NCBI GenBank assembly: GCA_037133055.1
Contig: JBAXOY010000043.1
Location: 1-24,223, forward strand
DNA: 24,223 nucleotides
Reading direction: 5' to 3'
From: Chlamydiota bacterium
GTDB lineage: Bacteria > Auribacterota > Tritonobacteria > UBA1439
The notes beneath the pieces were generated by a model that worked only from the letters and a program-made list of their open reading frames with translations, was not told the DNA's origin and did no database searches. Made by a program: the position numbers and the translations under genes. Position 1 is the first letter of the stretch. Each line of letters starts with the position of its first letter. Shown here piece by piece: positions 2 to 23,366 of this stretch.

Positions 2-55
2 CGCGAGGGCGGCCGCACGGTCGGCGCGGGCAGGGTCTCCGAGGTCATAAAGTAG
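2..55 (+). CDS. tuf: Elongation factor Tu, C-terminal end (partial)
   Basis: Manual translation [17 protein letters not shown] matches the EF-Tu C-terminal signature; lies directly upstream of rpsJ. Confidence 0.95.
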
Positions 56-75
56 GGTTCAAGCGGTTTGAACCC
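55..75. repeat. Short hairpin GGGTTCAA-GCGGT-TTGAACCC, related to the TTGAACCGC 9-mer array at 16989-17050
   Basis: Perfect 8-bp stem; contains TTCAAGCGG, the reverse complement of CCGCTTGAA. Confidence 0.6.
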
Positions 76-108
76 GTTGGGCGGTGTGAACGGATAAGTG
101 AGGGAGTA

Positions 109-417
109 ATGGCAAAGCAGAGAATCAGGATACGGCTGAAGGCGTACGACCACAGGGTGCTCGACCAGTCCTCCGAGGAGATCGTCGAGACGGCCAAGAG
201 GACCGGGGCGAAGATATGCGGACCCATCCCGCTCCCCACGGAGATCGAGCGGTACACCGTGCTGCGCTCGCCCCATGTGGACAAGAAGTCGCGGGAGCAG
301 TTCGAGATACGGACCCACAAGCGGCTGCTGGACATCCTCGATCCGACCGCCAAAACGATCGACGAGCTGAAGAAGCTCAACCTGCCCGCCGGGGTGGACA
401 TCAAGATCAAGCTGTGA
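109..417 (+). CDS. rpsJ: 30S ribosomal protein S10
   Basis: [22 protein letters not shown] and [14 protein letters not shown] motifs; SD GAGGGAG. Confidence 0.99.
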
Positions 418-449
418 CGGCGGTGACCGACGGGAGAGGCGTGGAAACG

Positions 450-1067
450 ATGGAGACACTCAGGGTGCTGGATGGAAACGGGCGCGAGGCCGGCACGGTC
501 GCGATATCCGAGAAGCTTCTGAAGGCGCGCGTGAACCCGCAGCTTCTGCACGATGTGATCACGGGCTATCGGCGGAACCGGCGCTCGGGGACCGCCTCGA
601 CCCTCACCAAGGGCGAGGTGGCGGGATCCGGCAAGAAGCCGTGGAGGCAGAAGGGGACCGGGCGCGCGCGGGCGGGGTATCGCCGCTCGCCGGTCTGGCG
701 CGGCGGCGGAGTCACGTTCGGCCCCAAACCGCGAGACTTCGCGCGGGTCATCCCGAAGGCCCTGAGGCGGAAGGCGCTTGCCGCGGCGTTCGCGGACAAG
801 GTGAGGTGCGGCGAGGTCGTGGTCGTGGACGCGGTCGCCTCCCTCGGAAAGACGAGGGAGATGGCGGGCTGGCTGAAGAAGATCGGGGCCGTGAAGAAGC
901 CGCTAATCGTCCTGGGCGCCCCTGACCCGGGTGTCGCGCGGGTCACCCGGAACATCCCCGGGGCCTCCGTGGCCCACCGCGGCGCCCTGAGCGCCTGGCT
1001 GCTGATGGCGCACGGCAGCGTGGTGATGGCACAGAGCGATTTCGAGCTATTGCAGGAGCAACTCTGA
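450..1067 (+). CDS. rplD: 50S ribosomal protein L4
   Basis: [15 protein letters not shown]...SPVWRGGG...GPKPR; start placed at ATG 450 (GTG 441 possible) inside ORF 216..1067. Confidence 0.97.
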
Positions 1068-1068
1068 G

Positions 1069-1353
1069 ATGAGGGACACACACGGTATTATCAGGGGGCC
1101 GGTGATCACCGAAAAGGCCGGCGCGGACATGGACGAGGGCGGCAAGTACGTCTTCGCGGTGGACACCCGGGCGAACAAGATCGAGATCAGGAAGGCCGTG
1201 GAGGTCGCCTTCAAGGTGAAGGTGACGAAGGTGAACACCATCAGCATGCGGGGGAAACTGAAGAGGGTCCGCTGGCAGATCGGCAAGACCCCCGACTGGA
1301 AAAAAGCGATCGTGACGCTCAGGAAGGGCGACAAGATCGAGTACGCAACATAA
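1069..1353 (+). CDS. rplW: 50S ribosomal protein L23
   Basis: PVITEKA, ANKIEIRKAVE and WKKAIVTL motifs. Confidence 0.98.
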   Translation: MRDTHGIIRGPVITEKAGADMDEGGKYVFAVDTRANKIEIRKAVEVAFKVKVTKVNTISMRGKLKRVRWQIGKTPDWKKAIVTLRKGDKIEYAT

Positions 1354-1364
1354 ACAATAGTGGT

Positions 1365-1425
1365 GCCACAGGGGACACAGAGGGCACCGAGAAAAATCAG
1401 CGGTTTCCTCTGTGACCTCTGTGGC
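1365..1425. repeat. Palindromic element, GCCACAG...CTGTGGC family, copy 1
   Basis: Arms 1365-1383 and 1407-1425 are 17/19 complementary; homologous to 6519-6583. Confidence 0.85.
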
Positions 1426-1451
1426 GAATCATCAACGTGGTGGAGTGAAAT

Positions 1452-2297
1452 ATGGGAATCAAAAATTACAAGCCGACGACCCCGAGCCGCCGCTGGACCA
1501 CGGGGCATGACTTCAAGGAGATCACCACGCGCACCCCCGAGCGGAGCCTGACCGTCGCCGTGCGGAAAAAGGCGGGCAGAAACTTCATGGGGCGCATCAT
1601 GGTGCGCCACATCGGCGGCGGGCACCGGCGGCGCTTCCGGATCATCGACTTCAAGCGCGACAAGGCGGGCATCCCCGCGCGGGTCGCGGCGATCGAGTAT
1701 GACCCGAACCGGACGGCGCGCCTCGCGCTCCTCCACTACGCCGACGGGGAGAAACGGTACATCCTGGCCCCCATCGGCCTCGGCGTCGGCGACAGCGTCG
1801 TGTCGGGCGAAAACGTCGAGGCGCGGGTCGGCAACGCGATGCCGCTCTCGCAGGTCCCCCTGGGGACCCAGATCCACAGCGTCGAGCTTGTCCCGGGGGG
1901 CGGGGGGATCCTCGCCCGCGGGGCGGGCATCGCCGCGGAGCTCATGTCGCGCAAGGGAGACCAGGCGAACGTCAGGCTCCCCTCGGGCGAGGTGCGGCTC
2001 GTGCACGTCAGGTGCATGGCGGTCATCGGGCAGGTCGGCAACACCGAGCACGAGGCGTTGAGCCTCGGCAAGGCGGGCCGGAGCCGGTGGATGGGGCGCC
2101 GCCCGAAGGTCCGCGGCGTGGCCCAGAACCCGGTCGATCACCCGATGGGCGGCGGAGAGGGAAGGTCGTCGGGCGGCAGGCATCCGTGCTCGCCCACCGG
2201 GGTGCTGGCGAAGGGCGGCAAGACCCGTTCGAAGAGCAAGCCCACGCGCCACATCATCCAGCCGAGGGTAACAAAGCGCCGGCGGGGCGGGGGCTGA
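1452..2297 (+). CDS. rplB: 50S ribosomal protein L2
   Basis: IEYDPNRTA and [18 protein letters not shown] motifs. Confidence 0.99.
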
Positions 2298-2345
2298 TAG
2301 GCCTGACACGCGCGCCGCGCGCCGGGAAACACGTGAGGAGAGACA

Positions 2346-2630
2346 ATGGCAAGATCGATACGGAAGGGTGCGTTCGTCGACGAGAAACTGCTCAAGAAGG
2401 TCGAGCGGATGAACCGCAGCGATGAGCGGAGGCCGCTCAAGACCTGGGCGCGGAGGAGCACCATCGTGCCCGATTTCGTGGGACACACCTTCACGGTGCA
2501 CAACGGGAAGAAGTTCATCCCGGTGTTTGTCACCGAGAGCATGGTCGGGCACAAGCTCGGGGAGTTCTCTCCCACCCGGACCTTCAGGAAGCACGGCGTG
2601 CACACCGAGAAGTCGGCGGCCGTTAAATAG
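2346..2630 (+). CDS. rpsS: 30S ribosomal protein S19
   Basis: [16 protein letters not shown] and [13 protein letters not shown] motifs. Confidence 0.99.
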
Positions 2631-2652
2631 CTATCGAGCTATCGAGCAATAG
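2629..2652. repeat. 8-mer tandem repeat AGCTATCG AGCTATCG AGCAATAG
   Basis: Three units read directly in the rpsS-rplV spacer. Confidence 0.65.
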
Positions 2653-2659
2653 GGGATAG

Positions 2660-3055
2660 ATGATGAAAGAGGCAAGGGCGGTAGGCAACTATTTGCGGAT
2701 TGCGCCGCGGAAGGCGCGCCTTGTGGTCGATCTCATCCGCGGGCGCAGTGTGAACGACGCGATGAACGCGCTCGCGATGTGCCGCAAACGGGGCGTCCAG
2801 CCGGTGCGGAAGATCCTGGTCTCCGCGATGGCCAACGCGGCCGGGAAGGAAAAGCCGGTGGCGATGGTGGTGAAGGACGCCTATGTGGACGAGGGGCCGA
2901 CGCTGAAGCGGTACATGCCGCGCGCCATGGGCCGCGCGACGCAGATACGGAAGCGGACGAGCCGGATCACCATCGTGCTCCGGGAACAGGAGACGAAAAA
3001 CGAGCCCGTGAAGGCGAAGGCGCAGGGAAAGACGCGCGCGGCGAAGAAGGCCTGA
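2660..3055 (+). CDS. rplV: 50S ribosomal protein L22
   Basis: [16 protein letters not shown] and [18 protein letters not shown] motifs; Lys/Ala-rich tail. Confidence 0.98.
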
Positions 3056-3101
3056 GCGGCTCGCCGCGCGGAACGCACTGAGGAATGACAGGGAGGTATG
3101 C

Positions 3102-3773
3102 GTGGGGCAGAAAGTTAATCCGATCGGGTTGCGGCTCGGGATCAATCAGGAGTGGCGCTCGAAGTGGTACGGCTCGAAGCGCGACTTCGGGACCATGCTC
3201 AGCGAGGACGTGAAGATCAGGGACTTCATAAAGGAGCGCCTGGGCTTCGCGGGCATCGCCCGGGTCTGCATTGAGCGGTACGGGAAGAGGGTCAGGATCA
3301 ATATCTGGAGCGCCCGGCCCGGCATCGTCATCGGCCGCAAGGGGGCCGAGATCGACAAGCTGCGGGACGAGCTCGTCGGGATGACGGGGCGGGAGATCGT
3401 GCTCGACGTGACCGAGATCAAGAGGCCGGAGGTCGAGGCCCAGCTCGTCGCGGAGAACGTCGCGGGTCAGCTCCTCAAGCGGGTTTCCTTCCGCCGGGCC
3501 ATGAAGCGCGCCGTGTCGCTCACCATGGACGCGGGGGCGCAGGGGGTTAAAATCCGCTGCGCGGGCCGGCTCGGGGGCGCCGAGATCGCGAGGTCGGAGG
3601 CGTACCGCGAGGGGAAGATCCCCCTGCACACGCTCCGCGCGGATATCGACTACGGGTTTGCCGAGTCGCGCACGGCCTACGGGCAGATCGGCGTCAAGGT
3701 ATGGATCTACAAGGGCGAAAAGGTTCTGGGAAGGGAGGTCGTTGGGGATGGTGCTCCAGCCCGTAAAAACTAA
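3102..3773 (+). CDS. rpsC: 30S ribosomal protein S3
   Basis: [22 protein letters not shown] and [12 protein letters not shown] motifs; GTG start with SD GGGAGG. Confidence 0.99.
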
Positions 3774-4167
3774 GTTCAGGAAGCAGCAGCGCGGGATCAT
3801 GAAGGGTCACGCGACCCGGGGGACCACGGTCGCATTCGGCGAATACGGGCTTCAGTCGCTCGAGAACGCCTGGGTGACCACGACGCAGATCGAGGCCGCG
3901 CGCGTCGCCGTCACGCGGCACCTGAAGCGCCGGGGGAAGGTCTGGATACGCATATTCCCGGACAAGCCGGTCACCAAGAAGCCGGCCGAAACCCGGATGG
4001 GGAAGGGCAAGGGCGCGCCCGAGACGTGGGTGGCCGTGGTGCGGAAGGGGCGGATCATGTACGAGATCGACGGCATCACCCCGGCCGTGGCGCAGGAGGC
4101 GATGAGCCGCGCGGCGGCGAAACTCGGGATCAGGACCAGGTTTGTCTCGCGGAGCACCATGCGGTAG
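3748..4167 (+). CDS. rplP: 50S ribosomal protein L16
   Basis: KFRKQQRG and [13 protein letters not shown] motifs; ATG 3748 lies inside the 3' end of rpsC, SD GGGAGG at 3733. Confidence 0.97.
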
Positions 4168-4209
4168 GCGCGACGCGCGCGTGACCGCGCACGACGAGGG
4201 GTAACGACG

Positions 4210-4434
4210 GTGAAAGCGAAGGAAATGAGGGGAAAGGCGCCGGGCGAGCTCATGCATCTTCTCGCCGGATGGCGGGAGGAGCTGTTCAAGCTCAATGTGC
4301 AGGCCATGACGGGGCAGATGGAGCAGTATAGCCGGGGGGGCGCCCTGCGGAAGGATATCGCCCGGGCACTCACGGTGCTGAAGGGGCAGCCCGCGACGGG
4401 CGAGGCGGATGCGAAGGAGAAACAGGCGTCATGA
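4210..4434 (+). CDS. rpmC: 50S ribosomal protein L29
   Basis: Position between rplP and rpsQ; EELFKL and [12 protein letters not shown] motifs. Confidence 0.93.
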
Positions 4435-4859
4435 CGAACCCAGCCAGGGGCAAGAGAAAAAGGCGCGTCGGGACGGTGGTCTCGGACGCGAGCGGGAAGA
4501 CCGTGATCGTGGAGGTGGGGCGCGTGCAGCGCCACGCGAAATACGACAAGGTGATGCGCGCGCACACGCGATGCTACGTCCACGACGAAGGCGAGGAGGC
4601 CGGCACGGGCGACGTGGTCCGCATCGAGGAGTGCAGGCCGATGAGCCGGCTCAAGCGGTGGCGCCTCGTCGAGATCGTCAAAAAGGGCAAGGGGGTCTCG
4701 GGCCCGGCGGGGACCGAGGAGGATGTCCGCGAGATCGAGGAGTCGATCCGCGGCAGGAAGGAAGCGGCTCCCGCCGCCGCGGCGGCGATCGAGGAGAGAG
4801 ACCGCGTTTCACCGGGGGCCGGCGCGGCCGTGGATGAGCGCGGGGGAGCGGCGACGTGA
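4431..4859 (+). CDS. rpsQ: 30S ribosomal protein S17 with C-terminal extension
   Basis: GTVVSD..KTVIV, HDE and [23 protein letters not shown] motifs. Confidence 0.97.
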
Positions 4860-5224
4860 TACAGCTCCGCACAAGGTGTGACGTGGCCGACAACACCGGC
4901 GCGCGCATGATCGCGTGCGTCAAGGTCCTCGGGGGGACCGGCAGGCGCTACGCGCACGTCGGGGACGTGATCATCGCCTCGGTCAAGGAGGCCGCCCCCG
5001 ACGGGATCATCAAGAAGGGCGAGGTCGTCCGAGGGGTCGTCGTTCGGACGAGGCAGCCGATACGGCGCGAGGACGGGTCGCTCCTCAGGTTCGACAGGAA
5101 CGCCGTGGTGATCATCGACCAGCAGAACAACCCGAAGGGCACCAGGATATTCGGCCCGGTCGCGCGGGAGCTGCGGGACAAGAACTTCATGAAGATCATC
5201 TCGCTCGCCCCGGAGGTCATCTGA
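4856..5224 (+). CDS. rplN: 50S ribosomal protein L14
   Basis: [19 protein letters not shown] and KIISLAPEV motifs. Confidence 0.99.
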
Positions 5225-5289
5225 GGGGCGGTCGGCGGGATCGCGGGGAACCGGCCCCGCAGGCACAGGAACGGAGCGGGATTAGAGCG

Positions 5290-5619
5290 ATGAAGACGAG
5301 AATACGGAAAGGCGATGTGGTCATCGCCGTCGCGGGGAAGGAGCGCTTCGCCCGGAGGACGGGCGCGGTGCTCAGGGTGTTCCCCTCCACGGGGCGGGCG
5401 ATCGTGGAGGGATTCAACCTCTCGAAGCGGCACATGCGTCCGACGCAGAAGAACCCGAAGGGCGGCATCGTGCAGAAGGAGCGGTCGATCCACATGTCCA
5501 ATGTCATGCTCTACTGCGCGAAGTGCCAGCGCGGGGTCCGGGTGGGGAGCAAGGCCCTTGCCGACGGGACGAAGGCGCGGTGCTGCAGGAAGTGCGGAGA
5601 AGTGGTGGGGAAGGCATAA
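5290..5619 (+). CDS. rplX: 50S ribosomal protein L24 (Cys-containing form)
   Basis: IRKGDVV and GGIVQKERSIHMSNV motifs, plus CAKC...CRKC; start ATG 5290. Confidence 0.97.
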   Translation: MKTRIRKGDVVIAVAGKERFARRTGAVLRVFPSTGRAIVEGFNLSKRHMRPTQKNPKGGIVQKERSIHMSNVMLYCAKCQRGVRVGSKALADGTKARCCRKCGEVVGKA

Positions 5620-5621
5620 CG

Positions 5622-5742
5622 AAATCCCAAATCCCAAATCCCAAATCCCAAAATAGCGGGACTTGTGACGAGGGAACTGTATCCGTGGTCGCGAGGTATA
5701 AGACGTTAACTGTTGGGATTTGGGATTTGGGATTTGGGATTT
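5622..5742. repeat. Perfect 30-bp inverted repeat made of 7-mer tandem repeats: (AAATCCC)4AA - 61 nt - TT(GGGATTT)4
   Basis: Arms 5622-5651 and 5713-5742 are exact reverse complements. Confidence 0.97.
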
Positions 5743-5757
5743 ACCGAAAGGTGTGCC

Positions 5758-6300
5758 ATGTCGAGGTTGCGTGACAGATATCACAAGGAGATCGTGCCCG
5801 AACTGATGAAGCGCTTCGGCTACACGAACAGGCTGCAGGCGCCGCGCCTGGAGAAGATCGTCATCAACATGGGGGTGGGCGAAGCGACCCAGGACTCGAA
5901 GATCCTCGATGATGCGGCGGCGGATCTCGCCCTCATCTCGGGGCAGAAGCCCGCCCTGAGGCAGTCGTCGAAGAACATCTCCAACTTCAAGCTGCGCGCC
6001 GGGGTAAAGGTCGGCTGCAAGGTGACGCTCCGCGGCGCCATGATGTACGAGTTCTTCGACAGGCTGGTGAGCATTGCGCTCCCCCGCCTCAGGGACTTCC
6101 GCGGGGTTCCGCTCAAGTCGTTCGACGGACGCGGGAACTACGGGCTCGGCTTCTCCGAGCAGAGCATCTTCCCCGAGCTCGATCCGGACAAGATCAAGAG
6201 GGCCCAGGGGATGGACGTCGTCATCGTCACCACCTCGAAGACGGACGAGGAGGCGAAGACACTGCTCCAGTTCATGGGGATGCCGTTCGCAAAGAAGTGA
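5758..6300 (+). CDS. rplE: 50S ribosomal protein L5
   Basis: [24 protein letters not shown] and FDGRGNY motifs; ATG 5758. Confidence 0.99.
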
Positions 6301-6325
6301 GACGGAAGATGTGAGATGAGGAGAC
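6297..6325. repeat. Degenerate 7-mer tandem GTGAGAC GGAAGAT GTGAGAT GAGGAGAC
   Basis: Period-7 pattern in the rplE-rpsN spacer; the last unit overlaps the SD. Confidence 0.45.
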
Positions 6326-6326
6326 C

Positions 6327-6512
6327 ATGGCAAAGACGTGTCTGAGGGTGAAGGCTTCCCGAACACCGAAGTTCGGCGTCCGCGGGTATTTCCGCTGCAC
6401 GCGGTGCGGCCGGTCGCGGGGCTACCTGCGCAAGTTTCAGATGTGCAGGATCTGCTTCCGCCAGCTCGCGTCGCGGGGCGAGATCCCGGGCGTGGTGAAG
6501 GCCAGCTGGTAA
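6327..6512 (+). CDS. rpsN: 30S ribosomal protein S14, type Z (Zn-binding)
   Basis: 61 aa; CTRCGR...CRIC and [11 protein letters not shown] motifs. Confidence 0.98.
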
Positions 6513-6518
6513 GGTGTC

Positions 6519-6583
6519 GCCACAGAGTTCACATGGCGCGCAGAGATACGGGGGATAGGGTTTCCCTCTGCGCCCCCTGTGGC
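6519..6583. repeat. Palindromic element, GCCACAG...CTGTGGC family, copy 2
   Basis: Terminal GCCACAG/CTGTGGC, internal GCGCAGAG/CTCTGCGC; aligns with 1365-1425. Confidence 0.8.
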
Positions 6584-6608
6584 TCAATGATGAATAAGGA
6601 TGGATTAC

Positions 6609-7007
6609 ATGACGATGACCGATCCGATCGCGGATATGCTGACCAGGATCCGCAACGCCAGCAAGGCGCGCAACGAGTTTGTGGACATCCCGAAATCCAG
6701 CGTGAAGCTCAATCTGATCCGGCTCCTCAAGAGCGAGGGGTTCGTCGAGGATTTCAAGATCGTGGACGCCGTGCCGCAGGGGTTCCTGAGGGTGTTTATG
6801 AAGTACGCGGCCGGCGGGGAGCCGGTCATCCGCGGCCTGAAGAGGGTGAGCACCCCCGGCAGCAGGAAGTACGTGGGGAAGAAGAAGATCCCGCGGCCGC
6901 TCGGGGGGCTCGGCATCGCGATAGTCACGACCCCGAGGGGGATCATGACGGACACGCAGGCCCGCAAGGAGGGTGTGGGCGGGGAGTTGCTCTGCTACGC
7001 CTGGTAG
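6609..7007 (+). CDS. rpsH: 30S ribosomal protein S8
   Basis: TDPIADMLTRIRNA, GGLGIAIVTT and GVGGELLC motifs; start chosen from SD AAGGA at 6596. Confidence 0.98.
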   Translation: MTMTDPIADMLTRIRNASKARNEFVDIPKSSVKLNLIRLLKSEGFVEDFKIVDAVPQGFLRVFMKYAAGGEPVIRGLKRVSTPGSRKYVGKKKIPRPLGGLGIAIVTTPRGIMTDTQARKEGVGGELLCYAW

Positions 7008-7046
7008 GGAAGCGGAACAACCGCTACTCTAAATGGGAGTACGACA

Positions 7047-7592
7047 ATGTCGCGCGTAGGAAAAAAGCCGGTTGACCTGACGCCCGGGGTCCAGGTGACT
7101 ATCCAGGGGCGGAGCGTCGCGGTCAAGGGCCCCCTGGGAGAACTGAAGCTGAACATGGCCTTGGGCATCTCGGCCGCCCAGAAGGGAACGCAGGTGCTGG
7201 TCGCATGCGCGCCGGGGGCCAAGAACGGCTCCGCGCTTCACGGGGTCACGCGGACGCTTATCGCCAACATGGTGCACGGCGTCTCGAAGGGGTACGAGAA
7301 GACGCTCCAGATAATCGGCGTCGGCTACAAGGCGAAGATCGAGGGGCGGCACATCATCTTCTTGCTCGGCTTCTCGCACCCGATCGACTACGAGATTCCG
7401 AATGGAATCACGATCGTCCCCGGCAAGGAGAACACCCTGACGGTGTCGGGCTGCGACAAGCAGCTCGTCGGCCAGGTCTCCGCCGAGATACGCAGCTTCT
7501 ATCCGCCGGAGCCGTACAAGGGCAAGGGGATACGGTACAGGGACGAGTGGGTCCGCCGCAAGGCGGGCAAGGCGGTCGCATCGACGTCATGA
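7047..7592 (+). CDS. rplF: 50S ribosomal protein L6
   Basis: SRVGKKPV, LGFSHP and PPEPYKGKGIRY motifs. Confidence 0.99.
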   Translation: MSRVGKKPVDLTPGVQVTIQGRSVAVKGPLGELKLNMALGISAAQKGTQVLVACAPGAKNGSALHGVTRTLIANMVHGVSKGYEKTLQIIGVGYKAKIEGRHIIFLLGFSHPIDYEIPNGITIVPGKENTLTVSGCDKQLVGQVSAEIRSFYPPEPYKGKGIRYRDEWVRRKAGKAVASTS

Positions 7593-7639
7593 GGCAGTCG
7601 CGGCATGCACAGGCGCATTAACAAGGGGTTCTCGACACG

Positions 7640-10479: not shown

Positions 10480-10519
10480 GATCTCAGATCTGAAATCTGA
10501 GATCTAAAATCCGAGATCG
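10480..10519. repeat. 7-mer tandem repeat (RATCYRA-like) with internal 10-bp hairpin
   Basis: GATCTCA GATCTGA AATCTGA GATCTAA AATCCGA GATCG; GATCTCAGAT pairs with ATCTGAGATC. Confidence 0.85.
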
Positions 10520-12293: not shown

Positions 12294-12330
12294 GATCTGA
12301 GATCTTGAATTTGAAATCGCACGAAGTGCG
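12294..12330. repeat. 7-mer tandem repeat ending in a CGCAC-GAA-GTGCG mini-hairpin
   Basis: GATCTGA GATCTTG AATTTGA AATCGCA; same family as 10480-10519. Confidence 0.75.
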
Positions 12331-14984: not shown

Positions 14985-15018
14985 TCTCTGCGCCGGGAGA
15001 GGGGATGGGATATCGACA

Positions 15019-15990: not shown

Positions 15991-15994
15991 GGAA

Positions 15995-16441
15995 ATGGGC
16001 ATCGTCAAATCGGTCAACGTGAGCGTGGCGAAGGGGGGGCCGAAACGCCCGGCGGGCGCGGGGGGGTTCGTTCCCGGCCTCGGGATCGAGGGGGACGCGC
16101 ACGCGGGGCCTGGCCCGAAGCAGGTCAGCCTCCTCGCCTGGGAGGGCACGCTCCGCATGAAGGCGGCGGGCGCGGAGGTCGATCGCGGCTCGTTCGGCGA
16201 GAACATCACCACGGAGGGCATCGATCTCCGGGGCCTCCGGGTTGGCGACAGGCTGAAGGTCGGGGCGGACGCCGTGCTGGAGGTCAGCGCGGTGGGGAAG
16301 GAGTGCCCGGCGCCCTGCGCGATATACCGGAAGGTCGGCTCGTGCATCATGCCTGTCGAAGGGGTCTTCTGCAGGGTGCTCGAGGGCGGCGCGGTGCGGG
16401 ACGGGGACGCGATCGAGATGATGCAGGCGCCCGGGAAATGA
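15995..16441 (+). CDS. MOSC domain protein
   Basis: GIEGDAHAG...QVSLL, FGENITTEG and GKEC...C...CIMPVEGVF motifs. Confidence 0.92.
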   Translation: MGIVKSVNVSVAKGGPKRPAGAGGFVPGLGIEGDAHAGPGPKQVSLLAWEGTLRMKAAGAEVDRGSFGENITTEGIDLRGLRVGDRLKVGADAVLEVSAVGKECPAPCAIYRKVGSCIMPVEGVFCRVLEGGAVRDGDAIEMMQAPGK

Positions 16442-16938
16442 GCGGGATACGGGTCGGCGTGGTGGTGGTGAGCGACAGGGCATCCTCCGGCGAGCGGCCG
16501 GACGGGTGCGCCGCCGCCCTCGCGGCGGCCCTTCCGCCGGGCGCATCCCTCGCGGAGCGCCTGATCGTGCCGGACGAGATAGCCGCGATCCGCGGCGCCG
16601 TGGCCGCACTGGCGGACGGGGGCCGTGTGGACGTGGTCCTCACCGCGGGGGGCACCGGTCTTTCGCCCAGGGACGTGACGCCGGAGGCGCTCGCCCCGCT
16701 CATGGGGAAGAATCTCCCCGGGATAGGGGAGCTCATCCGCATGAAGGGGTTTGAAGCGAAGCCGACCGCCATCCTCAGCCGGGCGGTGGCGGGGACCCGC
16801 GGGGCGGTCGTGATCATCGCGCTCCCCGGCAGCCCCCGGGGCGCCGCGGAGAGCCTCGCCCTCGTGTGGCCGGCGATTCCGCACGCGATCGAGACGCTCC
16901 GGGGCGAGGCGAGGGAGTGCGCGGGAAAAACGGACTGA
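16438..16938 (+). CDS. mog: MogA/MoaB family molybdopterin adenylyltransferase
   Basis: VSDRAS, IVPDE, GGTGLSPRDVTPEA, LSRAVAG and LPGSPRG motifs; ATGA overlap with the MOSC gene. Confidence 0.93.
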   Translation: MSGIRVGVVVVSDRASSGERPDGCAAALAAALPPGASLAERLIVPDEIAAIRGAVAALADGGRVDVVLTAGGTGLSPRDVTPEALAPLMGKNLPGIGELIRMKGFEAKPTAILSRAVAGTRGAVVIIALPGSPRGAAESLALVWPAIPHAIETLRGEARECAGKTD

Positions 16939-16958
16939 GAAGGCGGACAAATGCTTTT

Positions 16959-17050
16959 CACCACGGAGGACACGAAGTAACCGTCTCGCCGCTTGAACCG
17001 CTTGAACTGTTTGAACCGCCGAACCGTTTGAACCGCTTGAACTGCTTGAA
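16959..17050. repeat. Composite repeat: CACCACGGAGGACACGAAG half-element, CCGTCTCGCC unit and seven CYGYTTGAA units
   Basis: 9-mer units at 16989-17050 read directly, one with a 1-nt deletion. Confidence 0.9.
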
Positions 17051-17075
17051 CAAGTAGGGACTTTCGGGAGACGCC

Positions 17076-17600
17076 ATGGTCAACATAAGCATGAACCGCG
17101 CCGTGCACATCGCGCGGCGTGACGCCCATTACCGGTGGTGCATCCGGCTCATCGAACAGCGGTTCGAGGAATCCCCCCTCATCAAGCGGCGCAAGAGGCT
17201 GGAGGGGATCCTCCATCACCTTGAGGAGGCGATCCGGGAGGCGACGTGCGCCCTGAGGGGCAACCGCGGCTGGCGCGACGAGAAGATATTTTTGAAGTAT
17301 CTCCAGCTGGTCCACGACGGCGTGAAGGCCGCCCTGGTCATGCTGGAACACGAGGCCCTGCTGAAGGAGGACAAGAGCTTCCTGAAGCGGCTCCTCGGCG
17401 GAGGCACTGCGATGCTCGCGACCTTCGAGGAGCGCAGCAGGAGCATGGAGCGGGAGATACTCGACCACGTCGCCCAGCTCGTCCTGTACGCGAGCTCGAC
17501 CTACAGCGAGCTCAAGAAGGCAAACCACGATTCATTCTCCAACGCGGACCAGGGGCGCTACCAGATCGCCTATGACGCGGTGCTGCCGGACGAAGGGTAG
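17076..17600 (+). CDS. Hypothetical alpha-helical protein (174 aa)
   Basis: SD GGGAG, GC3-rich codons, amphipathic helical pattern; no family recognised. Confidence 0.75.
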   Translation: MVNISMNRAVHIARRDAHYRWCIRLIEQRFEESPLIKRRKRLEGILHHLEEAIREATCALRGNRGWRDEKIFLKYLQLVHDGVKAALVMLEHEALLKEDKSFLKRLLGGGTAMLATFEERSRSMEREILDHVAQLVLYASSTYSELKKANHDSFSNADQGRYQIAYDAVLPDEG

Positions 17601-17606
17601 GGCTAC

Positions 17607-17636
17607 GGTTGAAAGTTCAAGGGTGCGGGTTGAAAG
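17607..17636. repeat. Degenerate 7-mer repeat GGTTGAA AGTTCAA GGGTGCG GGTTGAA AG
   Basis: Period-7 pattern; GGTTGAAAG occurs twice, 21 nt apart. Confidence 0.5.
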
Positions 17637-17642
17637 CGGCGT

Positions 17643-18011
17643 ATGAGTAAGAAAAAGCCGGCCGAACAGCTGGTGCAGGAGATCATCGCGCGGGACAACA
17701 GGTACGCATTCGACGCGTACCAGTTCGTGCTGGAGGCCCTCGAGTACACGTACCGCATGATCGGTAAAAAGAGGCACGTCACCGGCGGGGAGCTCCTCGA
17801 GGGCTCGCGTCGGTGCGCGCTCGAACGCTACGGCCCCATGGCCAGGACCGTTCTCGATCACTGGGGGATCCGCCGCTGCGAGGATATCGGCGAGGTGGTG
17901 TTCAACCTTGTGGGAAACGGCCTCCTCAACAAAACCGAGCAGGACAGCCTGGACGACTTCAAGGGCGGCTACGATTTCCGGGACGCGTTTGACCGTATGT
18001 TCGACGATTAG
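17643..18011 (+). CDS. Minf_1886 family (TIGR04138-like, Planctomycetes/Verrucomicrobia) protein
   Basis: RDxRY..AYxFV.EAL, RHVTGxELL, YGPMARTVL.HWGI..EDIGEVVFNLV and DS.DDF motifs recognised from memory. Confidence 0.85.
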   Translation: MSKKKPAEQLVQEIIARDNRYAFDAYQFVLEALEYTYRMIGKKRHVTGGELLEGSRRCALERYGPMARTVLDHWGIRRCEDIGEVVFNLVGNGLLNKTEQDSLDDFKGGYDFRDAFDRMFDD

Positions 18012-18042
18012 TTCATGGTGCAGAGCCGGGAGCGGGCGCGTG

Positions 18043-18128
18043 CATGAAACGGCGTGCGGGCGAACGGGCGAAACGGCGATAGGTCACAGCGTCGCCCACC
18101 CGCCGATTCGCCGTCTCGCCGGTTCATG
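18043..18128. repeat. Imperfect 38-bp inverted repeat whose arms are 8-mer (GGCGAAAC-like) tandem repeats
   Basis: Arms 18043-18080 and 18091-18128 are 27/38 complementary; GGCG phase is kept in every unit. Confidence 0.8.
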
Positions 18129-18170
18129 GGCGGGGGAGCTGGTTCAGTATTCATCAGGAGGGTTGGTGCC

Positions 18171-18623
18171 ATGGCTGAGGATAGTAACAAGCTGCACGAG
18201 GCGAGGTTTCTCTCCCTGGTGTTGAGTCTCCACGGCTCCGCGTGGATGGCCATGGGCAAGGTGGCCAACCCGATGACGGGGAAGGTGGAGAAGGACATCG
18301 AGGCCGCGCGCGGCAGCATCGATCTTCTCGAGACATTGAGGGTCAAGACGCGAGGCAATCTCACGAGGGAGGAGGAAAAGATACTCGCGAACGCCCTGGG
18401 CGTGCTCCAGCTTAACTTTGTCGATGAGATAGCGCGGGGGGGGGAGGAGGATAAATCCCAAATCCCAAATCCCAAATCCCAACAGAAAAATTCGACGGAC
18501 GGACAACCCCAAAATCAAAACTCCCAACCGGAAGATGCGGCGGGCGGAGGGGCGGACAAGGCCGCCGGGCAGGAGGGCGGCGCGGCCCCCGCGGGGGAGG
18601 CCGGGAAAGCCACGGGCGCGTGA
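18171..18623 (+). CDS. DUF1844 domain protein with low-complexity tail
   Basis: FLSLVLSL..SAWMAMGKVANPMTGK...AR.SIDLLETL..KTRGNLT.EE..L...L..LQLNFV; SD AGGAGG. Confidence 0.88.
   Translation: MAEDSNKLHEARFLSLVLSLHGSAWMAMGKVANPMTGKVEKDIEAARGSIDLLETLRVKTRGNLTREEEKILANALGVLQLNFVDEIARGGEEDKSQIPNPKSQQKNSTDGQPQNQNSQPEDAAGGGADKAAGQEGGAAPAGEAGKATGA
18452..18527 (+). repeat. (AAATCCC)4-AACAG element read in frame inside the DUF1844 gene
   Basis: First 34 nt are identical to the reverse complement of 5710-5743; 61/76 ungapped identity with 20211-20286. Confidence 0.92.
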
Positions 18624-19183
18624 CGCGCGGTGCGTGGACCGGTACCATGGCCAGGAACCCCCGGGAGTGGCACAGCATCAAACGGGCAAAGCGCTGTATG
18701 CGCTGTGCCCGCGACTTTGCGGACGGGGAGCAGTACGCGTCGATACTTTTCGCCCGTGGGGACGGCTATGTGCGCGAGGATTACTGCGCGGAATGCCGGG
18801 CGGAGCTTGACGGCCCCGCCGGATCGGATTGCGGGCCGGCCCTATCCTCATGGAGGGGGCGCTTCAAGCCCGAACCCCCGAAGGTGAAGGAGGAGCCGAT
18901 CTCCAGGAGCACGATCGAGCGGCTCCTCACGAAGTACCTCGAGTCTCGCGAGCCCGCCCATGTCAACGTCAGTTACATCCTCGCCTTGATGCTGGAGCGG
19001 AAGAAGAAACTCCTGCCGCGCGACCGGATCGTCGAGCCGGGCACCGGGAGAAGGCTCGTAGTCTACGAGTTCTCGGGGAGCGGGGAGACGCTTCTCGTGG
19101 AGGATCCCGGGCTCGGGGTCGGGCAGGCGAAAGAGGTGCAGAAGCAGGTGCGCGAGCTCCTCGACCTCGAGGGCGTCAAGTGA
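18620..19183 (+). CDS. Conserved hypothetical protein with two CxxC motifs (alternative start ATG 18647)
   Basis: CMRC...CAEC, SSWRG, YILALMLERKK and VEDPGL motifs resemble a PVC-type hypothetical family; GTGA overlap. Confidence 0.75.
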   Translation: MTRGAWTGTMARNPREWHSIKRAKRCMRCARDFADGEQYASILFARGDGYVREDYCAECRAELDGPAGSDCGPALSSWRGRFKPEPPKVKEEPISRSTIERLLTKYLESREPAHVNVSYILALMLERKKKLLPRDRIVEPGTGRRLVVYEFSGSGETLLVEDPGLGVGQAKEVQKQVRELLDLEGVK

Positions 19184-19224
19184 CCGCGTGGTGAATACAA
19201 AGCCGTTCTTTAACGCAGGCGAAG

Positions 19225-20382
19225 GTGTATACAAAATTCTACAATCTCCGGGAGCGGCCGTTCAACCTCACCCCCGACTCCCACTTCCTCTACCTGAGCT
19301 CCCAGCACCGGGAGGCCCTGGGCCATCTCATCTACGGCATCAGGGAGCGCAAGGGGTTCATTCTCGTGAGCGGGGAGGTCGGCACGGGGAAGACCACGCT
19401 TTGCCGGGCGCTCATCACGGAGATGGAGAAGGAGGCGGAGGTCGGGTTCATCCTCAACAGTTTCCTCTCGGCCGATGAGCTCCTGAAGACCATCAACGAG
19501 GACCTCTCCTGCCATCGCGGGGCCGTCTCGAGGAAAGAGCTCGTCGACGAGCTCAACCTATTCCTTCTCGCGCAGCACGAAGCGGGGCGCAACGTCGTCC
19601 TGCTCATCGACGAATGCCAGAACCTCGCCCTGCCGGTGCTCGAGCAGTTGCGCATGCTCTCCAACCTTGAGACGGAGAAGGAGAAACTGATCCAGATCGT
19701 GCTTGTGGGACAGCCGGAGCTTCGGGAGATGATCGAGAGCCCCGCGCTCCGGCAGCTTGCCCAGCGGGTCACCGTCACGTACCACCTGCACCCGCTCACC
19801 TGCCCGGAGACGGTGTGCTATATTCGGCATCGCCTGGCAGTCGCCGCCGGGAGCGAGGAGACGAACCCGGTGCAGTTCACCGGTTCCGCCGCGAAAAGGA
19901 TCTATCGCTATTCGGAGGGGCTCCCTCGGAAGATCAACATCGTCTGCGACCGGGCGCTTCTCGTCGGGTACGTGCGCGGCAGCAAAAAGATCACGGACTC
20001 GATCGTGCGCCGTGCGATCGAGGAAATCCAGAGTCACCCGAGGACGCGGCATACGCCCGGGCGTCGGGGCGGGGCGGCCCGCGTGTGGAGAGCCGCCGCC
20101 GCCGCGGCATTCGTGGCCGCGGCCGCCGCCGCGGTGCGCTATGCCGCACGGCAGTCCCCGGTCCCCGCCCCGCACGCAGGGACGGCGCGCCCGGAAATCG
20201 CCGGTGAATATAAATCCAAAAGCCCAAATCCCAAATCCCAACAGAGAGATGCGACGGTCGGGCACATACCAAATCCAAAATCCAAAGATTCGGAGGCCGG
20301 TGACATCATGAGGAAAGGCGGCGCGGAGGACATCGCCTTGTCGTCCCGGGAACCGGCGCCCCCGGGGGGGGCTCACGCGTGA
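19225..20382 (+). CDS. exeA: ExeA/GspA family AAA ATPase, N-terminal part (AAA domain plus TM helix)
   Basis: PF.LTPD..FLY, Walker A GEVGTGKTT, Walker B LLIDECQ, LVGQPEL, G.PRKIN..CDRALL and an Ala-rich TM segment. Confidence 0.92.
   Translation: MYTKFYNLRERPFNLTPDSHFLYLSSQHREALGHLIYGIRERKGFILVSGEVGTGKTTLCRALITEMEKEAEVGFILNSFLSADELLKTINEDLSCHRGAVSRKELVDELNLFLLAQHEAGRNVVLLIDECQNLALPVLEQLRMLSNLETEKEKLIQIVLVGQPELREMIESPALRQLAQRVTVTYHLHPLTCPETVCYIRHRLAVAAGSEETNPVQFTGSAAKRIYRYSEGLPRKINIVCDRALLVGYVRGSKKITDSIVRRAIEEIQSHPRTRHTPGRRGGAARVWRAAAAAAFVAAAAAAVRYAARQSPVPAPHAGTARPEIAGEYKSKSPNPKSQQRDATVGHIPNPKSKDSEAGDIMRKGGAEDIALSSREPAPPGGAHA
20211..20286 (+). repeat. AAATCCC-family element read in frame inside exeA
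   Basis: TAAATCCA AAAGCCC AAATCCC AAATCCC AACAG ... AAATCCAAAATCCAAA; homologous to 18452-18527. Confidence 0.88.
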
Positions 20383-21095
20383 TGGCCGCGCTGGCGGTGA
20401 AGGCCCCGGTCGAAAATACCCCGTCCCCGACGGCGCCGCGCGCGGCGCCCGTGCCCGGTGAGCACGCCGTCCCCGTCGCCGCGACGACCCGCGAGGCCGA
20501 AGCCGCCGCGCTTCTCGCGGCGTTCTGGGGGAAGAAGGAGCTGAAGCCTGAGATGCTCGGCGATTCGCGGGACATCCACGCGCTCGCGGCCCGGTGCGGG
20601 ATGAAGTCGGTCTCCTGCTGGGGGGACGTTGATTTCATCCGTCGGATGAATCTCCCCTGCATCCTCTCGCTGCGCGGGGGCCCGGGAGGGGGGCCCGTCA
20701 GGGCGGTGCTTGCCCTGGTCAGGGACGGCCGGGCGGTGCTCCTGTGGCCGGGGGGCGGGAAAAAGTTGTTCGACGCGCCGGAGCTCCAGGCGGCGCTGTG
20801 CGGTCGGGCACTCTATTTTTATCCGGCCGGCATCGCGCTCCCCAACGCTCTTGCGCCGGGCATGCGCGGACCGGAGGTGCGCGCCCTCCGGCAGTCCCTC
20901 AAAAGGGCGGGGGCGCTCCGCGGCGGCGAGGGAGACCTGTACGGACCGGAGACCGCCGAGGCCGTGGGGCGGTTCCAGGAGCGCCACGGGCTGCCGGTCG
21001 ACGGTGTGGCGGGGACGGGCGAGTGGATGCTGCTCAAGAGCCTTGACGCGGGGGACGGAGCGCCACGCCTTGTCCCCGGCGCTCCGCAGGGGTGA
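20379..21095 (+). CDS. ExeA C-terminal part with peptidoglycan-binding domain (probably the frameshifted continuation of exeA)
   Basis: GMRGPEVRALRQSL...YGPETAEAVGRFQERHGLPVDGVAG (PG_binding_1 pattern); no signal peptide; adding one G in the G8 run at 20364-20371 fuses it to exeA. Confidence 0.8.
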   Translation: MMAALAVKAPVENTPSPTAPRAAPVPGEHAVPVAATTREAEAAALLAAFWGKKELKPEMLGDSRDIHALAARCGMKSVSCWGDVDFIRRMNLPCILSLRGGPGGGPVRAVLALVRDGRAVLLWPGGGKKLFDAPELQAALCGRALYFYPAGIALPNALAPGMRGPEVRALRQSLKRAGALRGGEGDLYGPETAEAVGRFQERHGLPVDGVAGTGEWMLLKSLDAGDGAPRLVPGAPQG

Positions 21096-21099
21096 TCGT

Positions 21100-21570
21100 A
21101 TGAGCACGATTCTGAAAGCGCTGAAGAAGGCCGAGGACGGCAGGGCGAAAGAGACGCTCCCGGGCAGGATCGTGACCGGGGAACCGCCCGCGCCCCGTGG
21201 GATGGGCCGGGAGATGTTCAAGCTTTCAGCCGCACTCCTGCTCCCGGCTCTTGTTGCCGCGGCGGTTTTCATGCACTACGAGTCCATCGCGGCGAGGGTG
21301 CGCGCGGGCACATCCGCGTCCTCCGCAGCGAAACCCTCTCCCCCGGCAGCGGTCAGCGCGCCCGCGCCGCCGGCGGGCGGCGGAGGGGAGGAGCCGGCGC
21401 TGCGCCTCTCCGGGGTCATATGGGACAAAGAAAACCCGATCGCCATCGTGAACGGCAAACCCATCACCCGGGGGGAGGAGCTGTCGGGGGCCCGCGTGGT
21501 GAAGATCACGATTGAAAGCGTCACCTTCCGCCGCGGAGGGAGGGAGTTCACGCGCACGGTTCAGGAGTGA
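21100..21570 (+). CDS. General secretion pathway protein GspB/ExeB-like
   Basis: MSTILKALKK N-terminus, a single TM helix and LSGVIW...AIVNG..I..GE.L.GARVVKI; follows exeA. Confidence 0.85.
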   Translation: MSTILKALKKAEDGRAKETLPGRIVTGEPPAPRGMGREMFKLSAALLLPALVAAAVFMHYESIAARVRAGTSASSAAKPSPPAAVSAPAPPAGGGGEEPALRLSGVIWDKENPIAIVNGKPITRGEELSGARVVKITIESVTFRRGGREFTRTVQE

Positions 21571-21617
21571 CCGGACTCGGATGAATACGGACGAGAACAG
21601 GGGAAGCCATAACGTAG

Positions 21618-21706
21618 CACGCAGATGAACGCAGATTGTCAGGATGGGCGCAGATACTAATGCGGCAAAAAGATGAAGAGGCGTTCGGGATTCAGATGAA
21701 CGCAGA
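21618..21706. repeat. CGCAGAT-type 9/10-mer repeat cluster
   Basis: CACGCAGAT GAACGCAGAT TGTCAGGAT GGGCGCAGAT; CAGATGAACGCAGA recurs at 21693-21706. Confidence 0.8.
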
Positions 21707-21714
21707 GGTATAAG

Positions 21715-22017
21715 GTGAAGAAAATGAAGCCACGGATCCGGGTGTGCGGCCTCCTCGCCGCCTTTCTCCTCACCGCTCCGGGCGGGTATTCACAGGATCG
21801 TCCCGAGCCCGCGGTCGAGGCGGAGCGCCTGGCCCGCACCGCCATCGACCTCATGGGGCACGGGAGGCGGCTGCTCGGGCAGGGCGACGCGCGCCGCGCG
21901 GCGATGGAGTTCGAGAAGGTCATCCAGTTCGATCCCTCCAACTCCGCCGCGGCGGATCTTCTCTCCCAGTGCATCGCGGCCGTGTCCTGCGGCGTCGTGC
22001 AGGATACGACACGATAG
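21715..22017 (+). CDS. Small exported protein with one TPR-like repeat
   Basis: Signal-peptide-like N-terminus; AAMEFEKVIQFDPSNSAA TPR pattern. Confidence 0.7.
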   Translation: MKKMKPRIRVCGLLAAFLLTAPGGYSQDRPEPAVEAERLARTAIDLMGHGRRLLGQGDARRAAMEFEKVIQFDPSNSAAADLLSQCIAAVSCGVVQDTTR

Positions 22018-22040
22018 TCCAAAGTGCCGGGCGGAGTGCA

Positions 22041-22069
22041 TTCCGATCCCGCCCTGAGTATGCTACAAT
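22041..22069 (+). promoter_or_regulatory. Possible sigma70 promoter TTCCGA-17-TACAAT with extended -10 TG
   Basis: TGcTACAAT at 22061-22069; weak -35. Confidence 0.35.
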
Positions 22070-22079
22070 GCCGAACAGC

Positions 22080-23282
22080 ATGAAAAATTTTGTTTTTCCG
22101 ATGATCATGGCCGCCTTCTGCATCGCGACGCTCGCCGTCTCCCTTTCCTTTGCGGGTGAATCCGACGAGGGGGGACAGAACGCGGAGTTCTACATACGGC
22201 TCGGCAACACCTTCATGGAGGGGGGGCAGTACGAGCAGGCCCTCTCGATGTACGAGAAGGCGGCTTCCCTCGCTCCCGAGGTGGATCTGAAGGAGAGCAT
22301 GGCCCGCGCGCACGTGAGTCTCGCGGACATGCTGCTCCGGAAAGACGATCCCCGCCCCGCCGCCGAGCATTACGAGGCGGCGCGGAAGCTCGATTCCAAG
22401 CTCGACCTCTTGGGGAAGCTGGAGGAGGCGCGCCGCGCGCAAGGGGCCCGCGCCCTCAAGGAGGGGGACGCCGACGGCGCCATCGCCGCGGCGGACAAGG
22501 CCCTGGCCCTCAAGGCCGGGAGCATCGAGGCCCTGAGGATCAAGGGTGACGCGCTGCTCAAGAAGGGCGACATCGAGGGGGCGCTCGTCCAGTTTGCCGA
22601 ACTCACCAAGGCCTCGCCCGCGGACGATGAGGCGGGGATGAAGGTGGGGCTCCTGAACGAGAGACTCGGGAGGAACCGGGCCGCCGTGCAGGTCTACACG
22701 GGGATACTGGATCGGAACCCGAACTTCATCCCGGCGTACCTCGCCCTCGGCGAACTCCAGGAGCGAAGGGGGAACCTCAGCGCGGCGGTGGAGGTCTACC
22801 GGCGGGGAATCGAAAAGGCCCCCGCGGACGTAGCCATGCATACCAACCTCGCCTGGGCCCACATCAGCGCGGATGATTACCGCGGCGCCTACAAGGAATG
22901 CCGGACAGCCATCGACCTTGACCCGGATAACGCGCACGCCTACAACTACCTCGGCTTGATCTTCATGCATATCCAGCGATACCCTGACGCCCAGGAGGCG
23001 TTCAGGAAATCGCTCTCGAAGAAACCGGACTACGCGGGCGCGAAGATGAACCTCGCCTTTCTCTTCGGCGTGATGGGAAAGAGCGAGGACTCGATCAGGG
23101 AGTACAAGGAGATTATCGAGAAGGACCCGCAGAACGCCGAGGCCCACTATAACGTCGGGATCAACTACAAGAAGGAGGGCCGGTTCGTGCTCGCCAAGTA
23201 TCACCTCGAGCGGGCCGCGGCGCTCTACGGGAAGGATTCGACCCTCGGCCAGCGCGCCCTCGATCATCTGAAGAAAAAATAG
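22080..23282 (+). CDS. Exported tetratricopeptide repeat protein (~400 aa)
   Basis: Signal peptide MKNFVFPMIMAAFCIATLAVSLSFA; many TPR units (AYNYLG, AHYNVG, DPDNA); ATG 22068 possible. Confidence 0.92.
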   Translation: MKNFVFPMIMAAFCIATLAVSLSFAGESDEGGQNAEFYIRLGNTFMEGGQYEQALSMYEKAASLAPEVDLKESMARAHVSLADMLLRKDDPRPAAEHYEAARKLDSKLDLLGKLEEARRAQGARALKEGDADGAIAAADKALALKAGSIEALRIKGDALLKKGDIEGALVQFAELTKASPADDEAGMKVGLLNERLGRNRAAVQVYTGILDRNPNFIPAYLALGELQERRGNLSAAVEVYRRGIEKAPADVAMHTNLAWAHISADDYRGAYKECRTAIDLDPDNAHAYNYLGLIFMHIQRYPDAQEAFRKSLSKKPDYAGAKMNLAFLFGVMGKSEDSIREYKEIIEKDPQNAEAHYNVGINYKKEGRFVLAKYHLERAAALYGKDSTLGQRALDHLKKK

Positions 23283-23329
23283 TGCGGCATTCAGGGTGGC
23301 CCGCGTCCCCGGTGCGGCGCCGTCCTTTT

Positions 23330-23366
23330 TGTCCGACGGGTCAAACCTGTCGGACAGGTCTGACAA
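23330..23366. repeat. GTCCGAC-type 9-mer tandem forming a 12-bp hairpin
   Basis: GTCCGACGG GTCAAACCT GTCGGACAG GTCTGACAA; TGTCCGACGGGT pairs with ACCTGTCGGACA. Confidence 0.75.

Follow-up and report, generated by a model that had tools for sequence, protein, structure and literature searches.

Short tandem-repeat elements in a bacterial ribosomal-operon contig are likely gene-less remains of repeat-armed cassettes

We analysed a 24,223-nucleotide stretch of DNA (the window) in which many spacers carry short tandem and inverted repeats. The window is contig C43 of its source genome, G000, which comprises 2.99 Mb in 191 contigs at 64% GC and is 92% complete. We conclude, with a probability of about 0.6, that these repeats are the gene-less remains of repeat-armed cassettes, and that the cassettes were likely inserted at the DNA level with the aid of their cargo. 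A full cassette consists of a tandem array, a gene for a four-helix-bundle or GxxExxY protein, and an inverted array. The cassette origin of the window repeats is very probable, and cargo-dependent movement at the DNA level has roughly even odds. The repeats are thus likely left-overs of a barely described class of mobile DNA, which its cargo is predicted to move.

Repeat arms around cargo genes

An earlier note on this DNA had stated that similar repeats flank TIGR02436 (four-helix-bundle) and TIGR04256 (GxxExxY) genes in other bacteria, and this link proved correct. We found four TIGR02436 and two TIGR04256 matches in G000, which score as PF05635 and PF13366 respectively, and five of these six genes are bracketed by inverted arrays. 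A four-helix-bundle protein of G000 matches the solved protein XCC0516 (PDB 2GSC), a homopentamer according to the available text of PMC4990558. Across the phylum, 115 TIGR02436 places were taken and 112 distinct loci scored, of which 77 had inverted arms; the controls gave same-orientation arrays at 11/112 loci and arms at 6.2% of swapped flanks and 8% of host genes (n = 465). For GxxExxY, 11 of the 14 full-length family loci had inverted arms, with a unit spacing of 9 or 10.

In what follows, G002 to G007 are family relatives of G000, other G numbers (e.g. G008, G030) are further compared genomes, and X9 and X10 are sequencing runs with related contigs. CGCAGAT arrays flank both GxxExxY genes of G000, and CACAGAG arms surround those of G002 and G004. 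Four-helix-bundle genes of relatives have arms of AGCTATCG (G006), AAATCCC (G005, G007), the TGAAAG type (G004, G005) and the GGCGA type (G003, G007). The CCGCTTGAA 9-mer had no cargo gene in the family, and a profile search found a four-helix-bundle gene beside a triple unit in 5 of 58 GTDB loci; all five belong to other phyla and are nearest to the period-9 clade. The unit is near-palindromic, so the polarity of its arms varies. Inverted cargo arms offered a clear match for eight of the ten window families, a loose one for GATCTGA and none that was clear for GTGAGAT. The whole arrangement, a tandem array with an inverted copy in fixed polarity and the same unit around a cargo gene, was found.

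Three other sets of loci touch on these genes. At G000:C49:2825-3145 a four-helix-bundle gene with no clear arms lies just upstream of a tRNA-like sequence; the genes most closely related to it, from G002, G004, G005 and G008, do have arms, whose units differ. Three operon spacers of G003, G005 and G007 (L004, L007, L009) hold hairpins with different arms and a common loop core like AAA(C/G)ATAT(A/G)(A/G)GGTTTT, which may represent the opening codons of a four-helix-bundle gene. On the Nostoc punctiforme plasmid pNPUN02 (L283:897-1318), a four-helix-bundle gene between inverted CAGGAGT-type arms fills an operon junction.

Elements of the window

The last part of tuf lies in the window together with the S10-spc-alpha ribosomal operons (gene names are our reading of the translations), moaC/MOSC/mog, DUF1844, an exeA-like ATPase, and TPR and bactofilin genes. 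All ten unit families of the earlier note were located in it. The note had missed two kinds of feature: intragenic AAATCCC arrays, at 18453-18482 and 20212-20286, and, ahead of the 16989 array, a CACGGAG arm at 16958. The elements are as follows:

55..75, + strand: minimal 9-mer-family hairpin at tuf-rpsJ (GGTTCAAG / TTGAACC), overlapping the tuf stop codon; its 9-mer is the one found beside period-9-clade genes in the 5/58 GTDB loci.
1365..1425, + strand: gene-less CACAGAG-family hairpin at rplW-rplB with GxxExxY-type arms (fold z −5.86 vs shuffles); the arms recur around GxxExxY genes in G002:C23 and G004:C4.
2629..2652, + strand: single left arm of the AGCTATCG 8-mer, starting within the rpsS stop codon; the family brackets a four-helix-bundle gene in G006:C213.
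5622..5742, + strand: gene-less hairpin at rplX-rplE with AAATCCC heptamer arms and a 61-nt unique loop; 5622-5651 pairs with 5713-5742 at 30/30 positions (a 30-bp perfect stem). The family also occurs at this junction in G005 and G007, and full AAATCCC cassettes in G005:C43 and G007:C46.
6297..6325, + strand: eroded two-unit array (GTGAGA), the weakest member, overlapping the rplE stop; the rplE-rpsN junction of G003 has a related TAAGAC array.
6519..6583, + strand: decayed CACAGAG-family hairpin at rpsN-rpsH (fold z −1.36, not significant).
10480..10519, + strand: GATCTGA heptamer array/hairpin at secY-adk (fold z −3.81); the family also occurs in G002, and a similar arm is at a four-helix-bundle locus in G030.
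12294..12330, + strand: decayed GATCTGA-type arm at rpmJ-rpsM, folding no better than shuffles and missed by the family dictionary.
16958..17051, + strand: composite after mog, CACGGAG left arm plus CCGCTTGAA 9-mer array, one of a multi-copy class (cluster of 10 similar spacers; 9/9 co-directional copies in sense orientation).
17607..17636, + strand: single arm in the GGTTGAAAG heptamer phase; the four-helix-bundle genes of G004:C1 and G005:C124 lie between related arms.
18043..18128, + strand: gene-less hairpin of the GGCGAA 8-mer family, which has 9 two-armed copies in G000; its kin are period-8 four-helix-bundle cassettes in G003:C215 and G007:C118.
18453..18482, + strand: AAATCCC array inside the DUF1844 gene, encoding a 10-residue peptide missing from 5 orthologues.
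20212..20286, + strand: AAATCCC-type arrays inside the exeA-like gene, near its split from the peptidoglycan (PG)-binding domain.
21612..21706, + strand: CGCAGAT left-arm module of GxxExxY type, matching the module upstream of the GxxExxY gene on G000:C111; G000 has 59 modules of this type.
23330..23366, no strand given: GTCCGAC period-9 hairpin in a convergent spacer (fold z −4.27); in G003 and G005, GTCCGAC period-9 units are found within four-helix-bundle-suffix (TIGR04258) genes and upstream of them.

TRF called arrays at 2629-2647, 5622-5652/5713-5742, 10480-10518 and 16989-17051. The elements sit between or within protein genes and none is in an rRNA gene. Two general descriptions in the earlier note held in part. 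Elements were said to start often just after a stop codon, and in 9/13 the distance to the upstream stop is at most 11 nt (three overlap the stop), the other four starting 19-47 nt away. They were also said to be often inverted-paired; 4 of the 11 folded elements beat their shuffles (z −3.8 to −10.7), and the others are single arms, short or decayed. The window contains hairpins and single arms only, and a scan of its 13 non-ribosomal open reading frames (ORFs) gave no cassette cargo or transposase.

The exeA-like gene (19225-21095) is split into ATPase and PG-binding ORFs with a 4-nt overlap and AAATCCC arrays in the linker, and the two form one fused ORF in G002 and G007. The arrays may have helped to split the gene.

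Repeat families across the genome

Genes were called with a hexamer-trained caller (2655 genes in G000). In a de novo census of 1906 spacers we counted 6-mers that reappear within 7-30 nt and compared these with the mean of 10 dinucleotide shuffles. Cores of window families exceeded the shuffles 5- to 150-fold (observed/shuffled: ACGCAG 74/0.5; AAATCC 59/4.0; GTTCAA 48/1.5; CACGGA 48/1.8; GGCGAA 23/4.6; CACAGA 14/0.6; ATCTGA 14/2.3; AGCTAT 13/0.3). A second count of array-bearing spacers (n = 1740), with family patterns picked after the data were seen, gave CGCAGAT 79/1.0, CACAGAG 53/0.6, AAATCCC 70/4.4, TTGAA-type 63/3.8, AGCTATCG 19/0.2, GGCGAA 26/2.6, GTCCGAC 6/0.2 and GATCTGA 17/0.4. Nine families therefore recur far above shuffled spacers, and GTGAGAT is weak, with 3 arrays in the whole genome and 2 copies in the window. 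The census contradicts the possibility that each motif is single-copy and no commoner than in shuffled spacers, which the earlier note had named as fatal to its claim.

Two-armed spacers had fixed polarity in 27/27, 25/25, 5/5 and 4/4 cases. Among spacers of 20-120 nt, arrays were found in 102/799 co-directional, 14/104 convergent and 1/46 divergent ones. On the sense strand, single AAATCCC arms lie at a stop or inside a gene in 26/31 cases, and mirror arms end 2-7 nt ahead of a start codon in 9/19; single AAATCCC arms behave as halves of a two-armed element. A further 23 arrays lie inside genes, 22 of them in one orientation and reading KSQIPNP. In-frame KSQIPNP inserts were seen at G000:C74:6454-7476 and C57:6053-7249, in genes whose motifs look like those of HemB and QueA. 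The elements alter host genes, both by adding KSQIPNP peptides and by occupying expected ribosome-binding-site positions. No + strand terminator call fell at these elements, with 10 sites against 12.6 expected. The CCGCTTGAA pattern has 73 matches in G000 vs 0-5 in each of 7 relatives, which is a lineage burst specific to G000. Some other forms are multi-copy as well, namely the CACGGAG plus 9-mer composites, GGCGAA hairpins and CGCAGAT modules.

Turnover at operon junctions

We surveyed 34 operon junctions in 8 family genomes, using a family dictionary built on the same sequences. The state of 22/34 junctions varied between filled and empty from genome to genome, and 12/34 carried disjoint, unrelated families. 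At rplW-rplB alone there were four families and an empty state, the relatives of G000 having other families or none. The number of filled junctions was 8/34 in G000, 16/34 in G003, 15/34 in G007, 11/32 in G005, 3/31 in G002 and 0/34 in G004.

The relatives have 49 cassette loci, for 27 of which G000 has the syntenic gene pair, leaving 17 readable junctions. At these, where a relative holds a full cassette, G000 shows a relic of the same family in 4 cases, a different family in 6 and nothing in 7; the same-family relics support the "scars" proposed in the earlier note. G000 is filled at 10/17 of these junctions vs 251/1336 in the background (p = 3e−4), a background that may be low since its dictionary is smaller. 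Filled and empty states among near relatives come from the X9 and X10 contigs. In the X10 contig (other pieces of which are ~96% alike) the rplX-rplE element is absent and position 5619 is joined to 5746 by three letters, and the X9 contig has 98 letters at rplE-rpsN vs 24 in the window. Scanning metagenomes with rplX yielded 6 loci, which supplied no further filled/empty pair.

Arm period and unit sequence

Arm period could be called at 87 of the 112 four-helix-bundle loci, and was 7 in 70, 8 in 13, 9 in 3 and 10 in 1. When mapped on a quick tree built from 109 rows and 107 columns, the period changed 11 times, vs 16.3 with shuffled labels (0/200 shuffles as low), and neighbouring proteins on the tree often carry different units. 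Arm period follows the cargo clade (7, 8, 9; 9-10 for GxxExxY) and unit sequence changes fast. Kin share period labels, so that this is clustering and not by itself co-evolution. Since both arms switch unit together, concerted rewriting or strong selection would be needed.

A tentative and rather doubtful extension is that this is transposase-free and reverse transcriptase (RT)-free mobile DNA whose cargo oligomer measures the period, not the sequence. The four-helix-bundle pentamer (period 7, 8, 9) or a GxxExxY nuclease (about one helical turn) would engage the arrays, a single unit would serve to rewrite both arms at once, and copies lacking the gene would spread in trans. If true, this would explain the orphan heptamers of cyanobacteria, Xanthomonas and Beggiatoaceae and would give two large orphan protein families a job.

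A cassette family copied as an IS66-type element

The CAGGAGTCAG family, which lies outside the window, comprises a full cassette (G000:C135:447-890) and 23 gene-less copies with GTAAC...GTTAC ends. In 15/22 end pairs, 7-8 of 8 flank bases are duplicated. The gene-less copies fall into four deletion classes (15, 3, 3 and 2), so deleted forms were copied after deletion. With GTAA-type ends, an 8-bp duplication, no transposase and internal deletion, the family moved as an IS66-type miniature inverted-repeat transposable element (MITE) derived from a four-helix-bundle cassette. Its main deletion class, with its own 8-bp duplication, is at rpsJ-rplD in G003, and G007 is rich in the family (47 end matches). 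IS66 elements carry related GTAA-N4-TCAG ends, seen in G007 and at 10/26 loci (one with an 8-bp duplication). G000, at 92% completeness, gave no PF03050 match and no transposase cognate to the MITE, and none of 30 loci examined had a transposase beside GTAACTRYTCAG.

The proposal in the earlier note of one system acting in trans was too simple: there are two unrelated cargo families, plus IS66 hitch-hiking by a family from outside the window. The copy pattern shows action in trans for this MITE family only; window families would share it by extension. The MITE copies are sense-biased (14/17) and 13/17 lie within 33 nt of a stop. A DNA MITE is thus as sense-biased and stop-proximal as the other families, and such biases need only selection.

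An integron attC likeness (TAAC...GTTA cores) was set aside, as the ends differ among families.

Proposed mechanism and alternative explanations

We propose that cassettes likely insert as DNA downstream of a stop codon and ahead of the ribosome-binding site that follows, and predict that they are aided by a cargo protein that would recognise its own arms. The cargo would then be lost by deletion between short repeats, leaving a hairpin and later a single arm hugging a stop or start codon, and selection would account for the position and sense orientation of the elements. GxxExxY may serve as a nuclease and the four-helix-bundle pentamer as an array binder, with the cargo acting in trans on gene-less copies in a manner that leaves no target duplication.

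Several observations weigh against this reading. No movement step was observed for window families, and to our knowledge the four-helix-bundle protein has no catalytic activity. There was no sign of target duplication, with repeated flanks at 2/35 CGCAGAT sites (null 6.5%), 1/6 AAATCCC, 3/44 9-mer and 0/9 GGCGAA sites, in a test of 32-nt flanks with a positive control of 13/25 and in which CGCAGAT module ends may fall outside the flanks; these families also showed no consensus target. The arm test failed at 35/112 four-helix-bundle loci, and for most window families no cargo gene is present in G000 (six cargo genes found, 92% complete). Each AAATCCC hairpin has a loop of its own, and the one at rplX-rplE gave no cassette match (score 26 vs a shuffled best of 30-32) and was found in 0/7 relatives. 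The X10 empty site has three other letters and no clean insertion footprint, so it may equally be a deletion. No syntenic pair was available for 22/49 cassette loci, the 17 junctions were classed by eye, the dictionary makes the junction counts favour the genomes surveyed, and the tree is a quick one on 107 columns in which kin share labels. Finally, gene-less hairpins of G000 have a mild G-U excess (138/100, p = 0.016, among related copies).

This last point would suit elements acting at the RNA level, whose arms pair in the transcript like an rRNA intervening sequence (IVS), are cut by RNase III or stabilise the mRNA, are selected and spread through an RNA step. We consider this unlikely, even though the 30-bp perfect stem at 5622-5742 fits it and the cargo is co-oriented with flanking genes (32/34 upstream and 36/39 downstream where callable, longest-ORF orientation being callable for 50/112 upstream and 62/112 downstream flanks). 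The available texts add two precedents: the Coxiella burnetii 23S IVS has an S23p (PF05635) ORF, heptamers and RNase III excision (PMC4990558), and PF05635 resembles the RNA-binding diversity-generating retroelement protein Avd (PMC10053308). However, among arm mismatches cassettes have 126 G-U to 141 A-C and operon spacers 28 to 29, with no G-U excess, 7/11 window elements fold no better than shuffles, and the IS66-type MITE has the same orientation and position bias with no RNA involved. G000 (92% complete) also had no RVT_1 match, and so showed no reverse transcriptase of a diversity-generating or other retroelement. Passive hitch-hiking, in which ordinary transposases (IS66, others) or recombination move cassettes and both cargo and arms are passengers, is improbable as a general account. 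It describes the CAGGAGTCAG duplications, the four deletion classes and the IS66 ends well, but IS66-type ends were convincing in only 1/112 cassettes, flank repeats numbered 5/80 vs a 2.2% null, window families have neither the short terminal inverted repeats nor the duplications of a MITE, and the link between period and clade is left unexplained.

Movement of repetitive extragenic palindromes (REPs) by the REP-associated tyrosine (Y1) transposases (RAYTs) of G000 is very improbable. There are 8 Y1_Tnp genes in G000, window families have no target duplication, the 23330 hairpin includes one GGGTCAAACCT, and hairpins lie in co-directional and convergent spacers and in only 1/46 short divergent ones, as for REP doublets (REPINs) in the available text of PMC3116915. 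The RAYT genes are flanked by other repeats or none, those with repeats mostly by the GGGTCAGACCT type (~40 copies), and window units flank non-Y1 genes, so that the association with RT or HUH/RAYT genes raised in the earlier note was not borne out in G000. Independent slippage products used as terminators or regulators of ribosomal operons are largely refuted, with secondary use at single sites possible. Some strong hairpins do follow stops, the convergent-spacer hairpin at 23330-23366 is tailed by T/A, and the available text of PMC4679880 proposes a regulatory role for TAACTGA repeats, but the same units occur at tens of unlinked loci in fixed polarity and around cargo genes, no junction is filled in G004, and terminator calls were no more frequent than expected. 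Given that the biases need only selection, that cassettes and operon spacers have no G-U excess, that no RT was found and that the repeats of Y1 genes are separate ones, we favour insertion at the DNA level with help from the cargo.

A separate REP/RAYT-like system with ~40 GGGTCA(A/G)ACCT repeats is present in G000 (C17, C64, C88, C11 and others).

Comparison with known systems

The remains of repeat-armed cassettes are a variant between IVS, REPIN and MITE and a member of none. They share with the Coxiella IVS, as far as the available text goes (PMC4990558), a four-helix-bundle ORF in an inverted-repeat loop, tandem heptamers and ORF decay by deletion. Unlike it, they lie at mRNA operon junctions, come in many unit families with GxxExxY as a second cargo, and are mostly gene-less; insertion in an rRNA gene was not seen in the window, and a PF05635 ORF between inverted repeats is found in full cassettes elsewhere and not in the window copies. 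In common with the REPIN/RAYT system of Bertels and Rainey 2011 (PMC3116915, available text), many extragenic gene-less hairpins are tied to few protein genes with the same repeat, the repeat follows the protein lineage, and multi-copy extragenic hairpin doublets are rare in divergent spacers. Unlike in that system, the arms are periodic tandem arrays, the partner is not a Y1 HUH transposase, no window repeat flanks a Y1 (RAYT) gene, and the RAYTs of G000 have separate repeats. IS66-derived MITEs, or mobile insertion cassettes, are matched by the CAGGAGTCAG family in its ends, 8-bp duplication and internal deletions; the ten window families differ in having no such ends or duplications.

Orphan heptamers resemble the window elements as far as their repeats are described in the available texts: they have period 7, are intergenic in co-directional operons including ribosomal ones, lie close to stops on one strand and close to starts on the other, and form inverted pairs. 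GGGAATC repeats of Xanthomonas form inverted pairs (PMC4692102), TAACTGA repeats of Beggiatoaceae lie upstream of starts and in ribosomal operons with no mechanism given (PMC4679880), and short tandemly repeated repetitive (STRR) sequences of cyanobacteria are of unknown function (PMC2670836); the available texts of the first two contained no mention of four-helix-bundle or S23 proteins. Our literature search, which excluded supplements and could not reach most subscription papers, turned up no account of the cassette as a unit.

Reports of heptamer repeats from bacterial spacers have given no mechanism, and both PF05635 and GxxExxY are large families lacking an assigned function. About a dozen arm families coexist in G000, with the stages of full cassette, hairpin, single arm and in-gene array represented among them, and the IS66-type MITE made from a cassette serves as an internal control, IS66 explaining one family only. 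What the window contributes is a large number of families together, relics at orthologous sites, the pattern linking period to clade, and the IS66 control.

Other observations

A perfect, non-periodic 16-bp hairpin lies at 23431-23466 in the convergent spacer between the TPR and bactofilin genes. At 417-450, rplC is missing between rpsJ and rplD in G000, as it is in G002, G003, G004, G005 and G007; the rpsJ-rplD interval is ~700 bp in G008, G012, G015 and G037.

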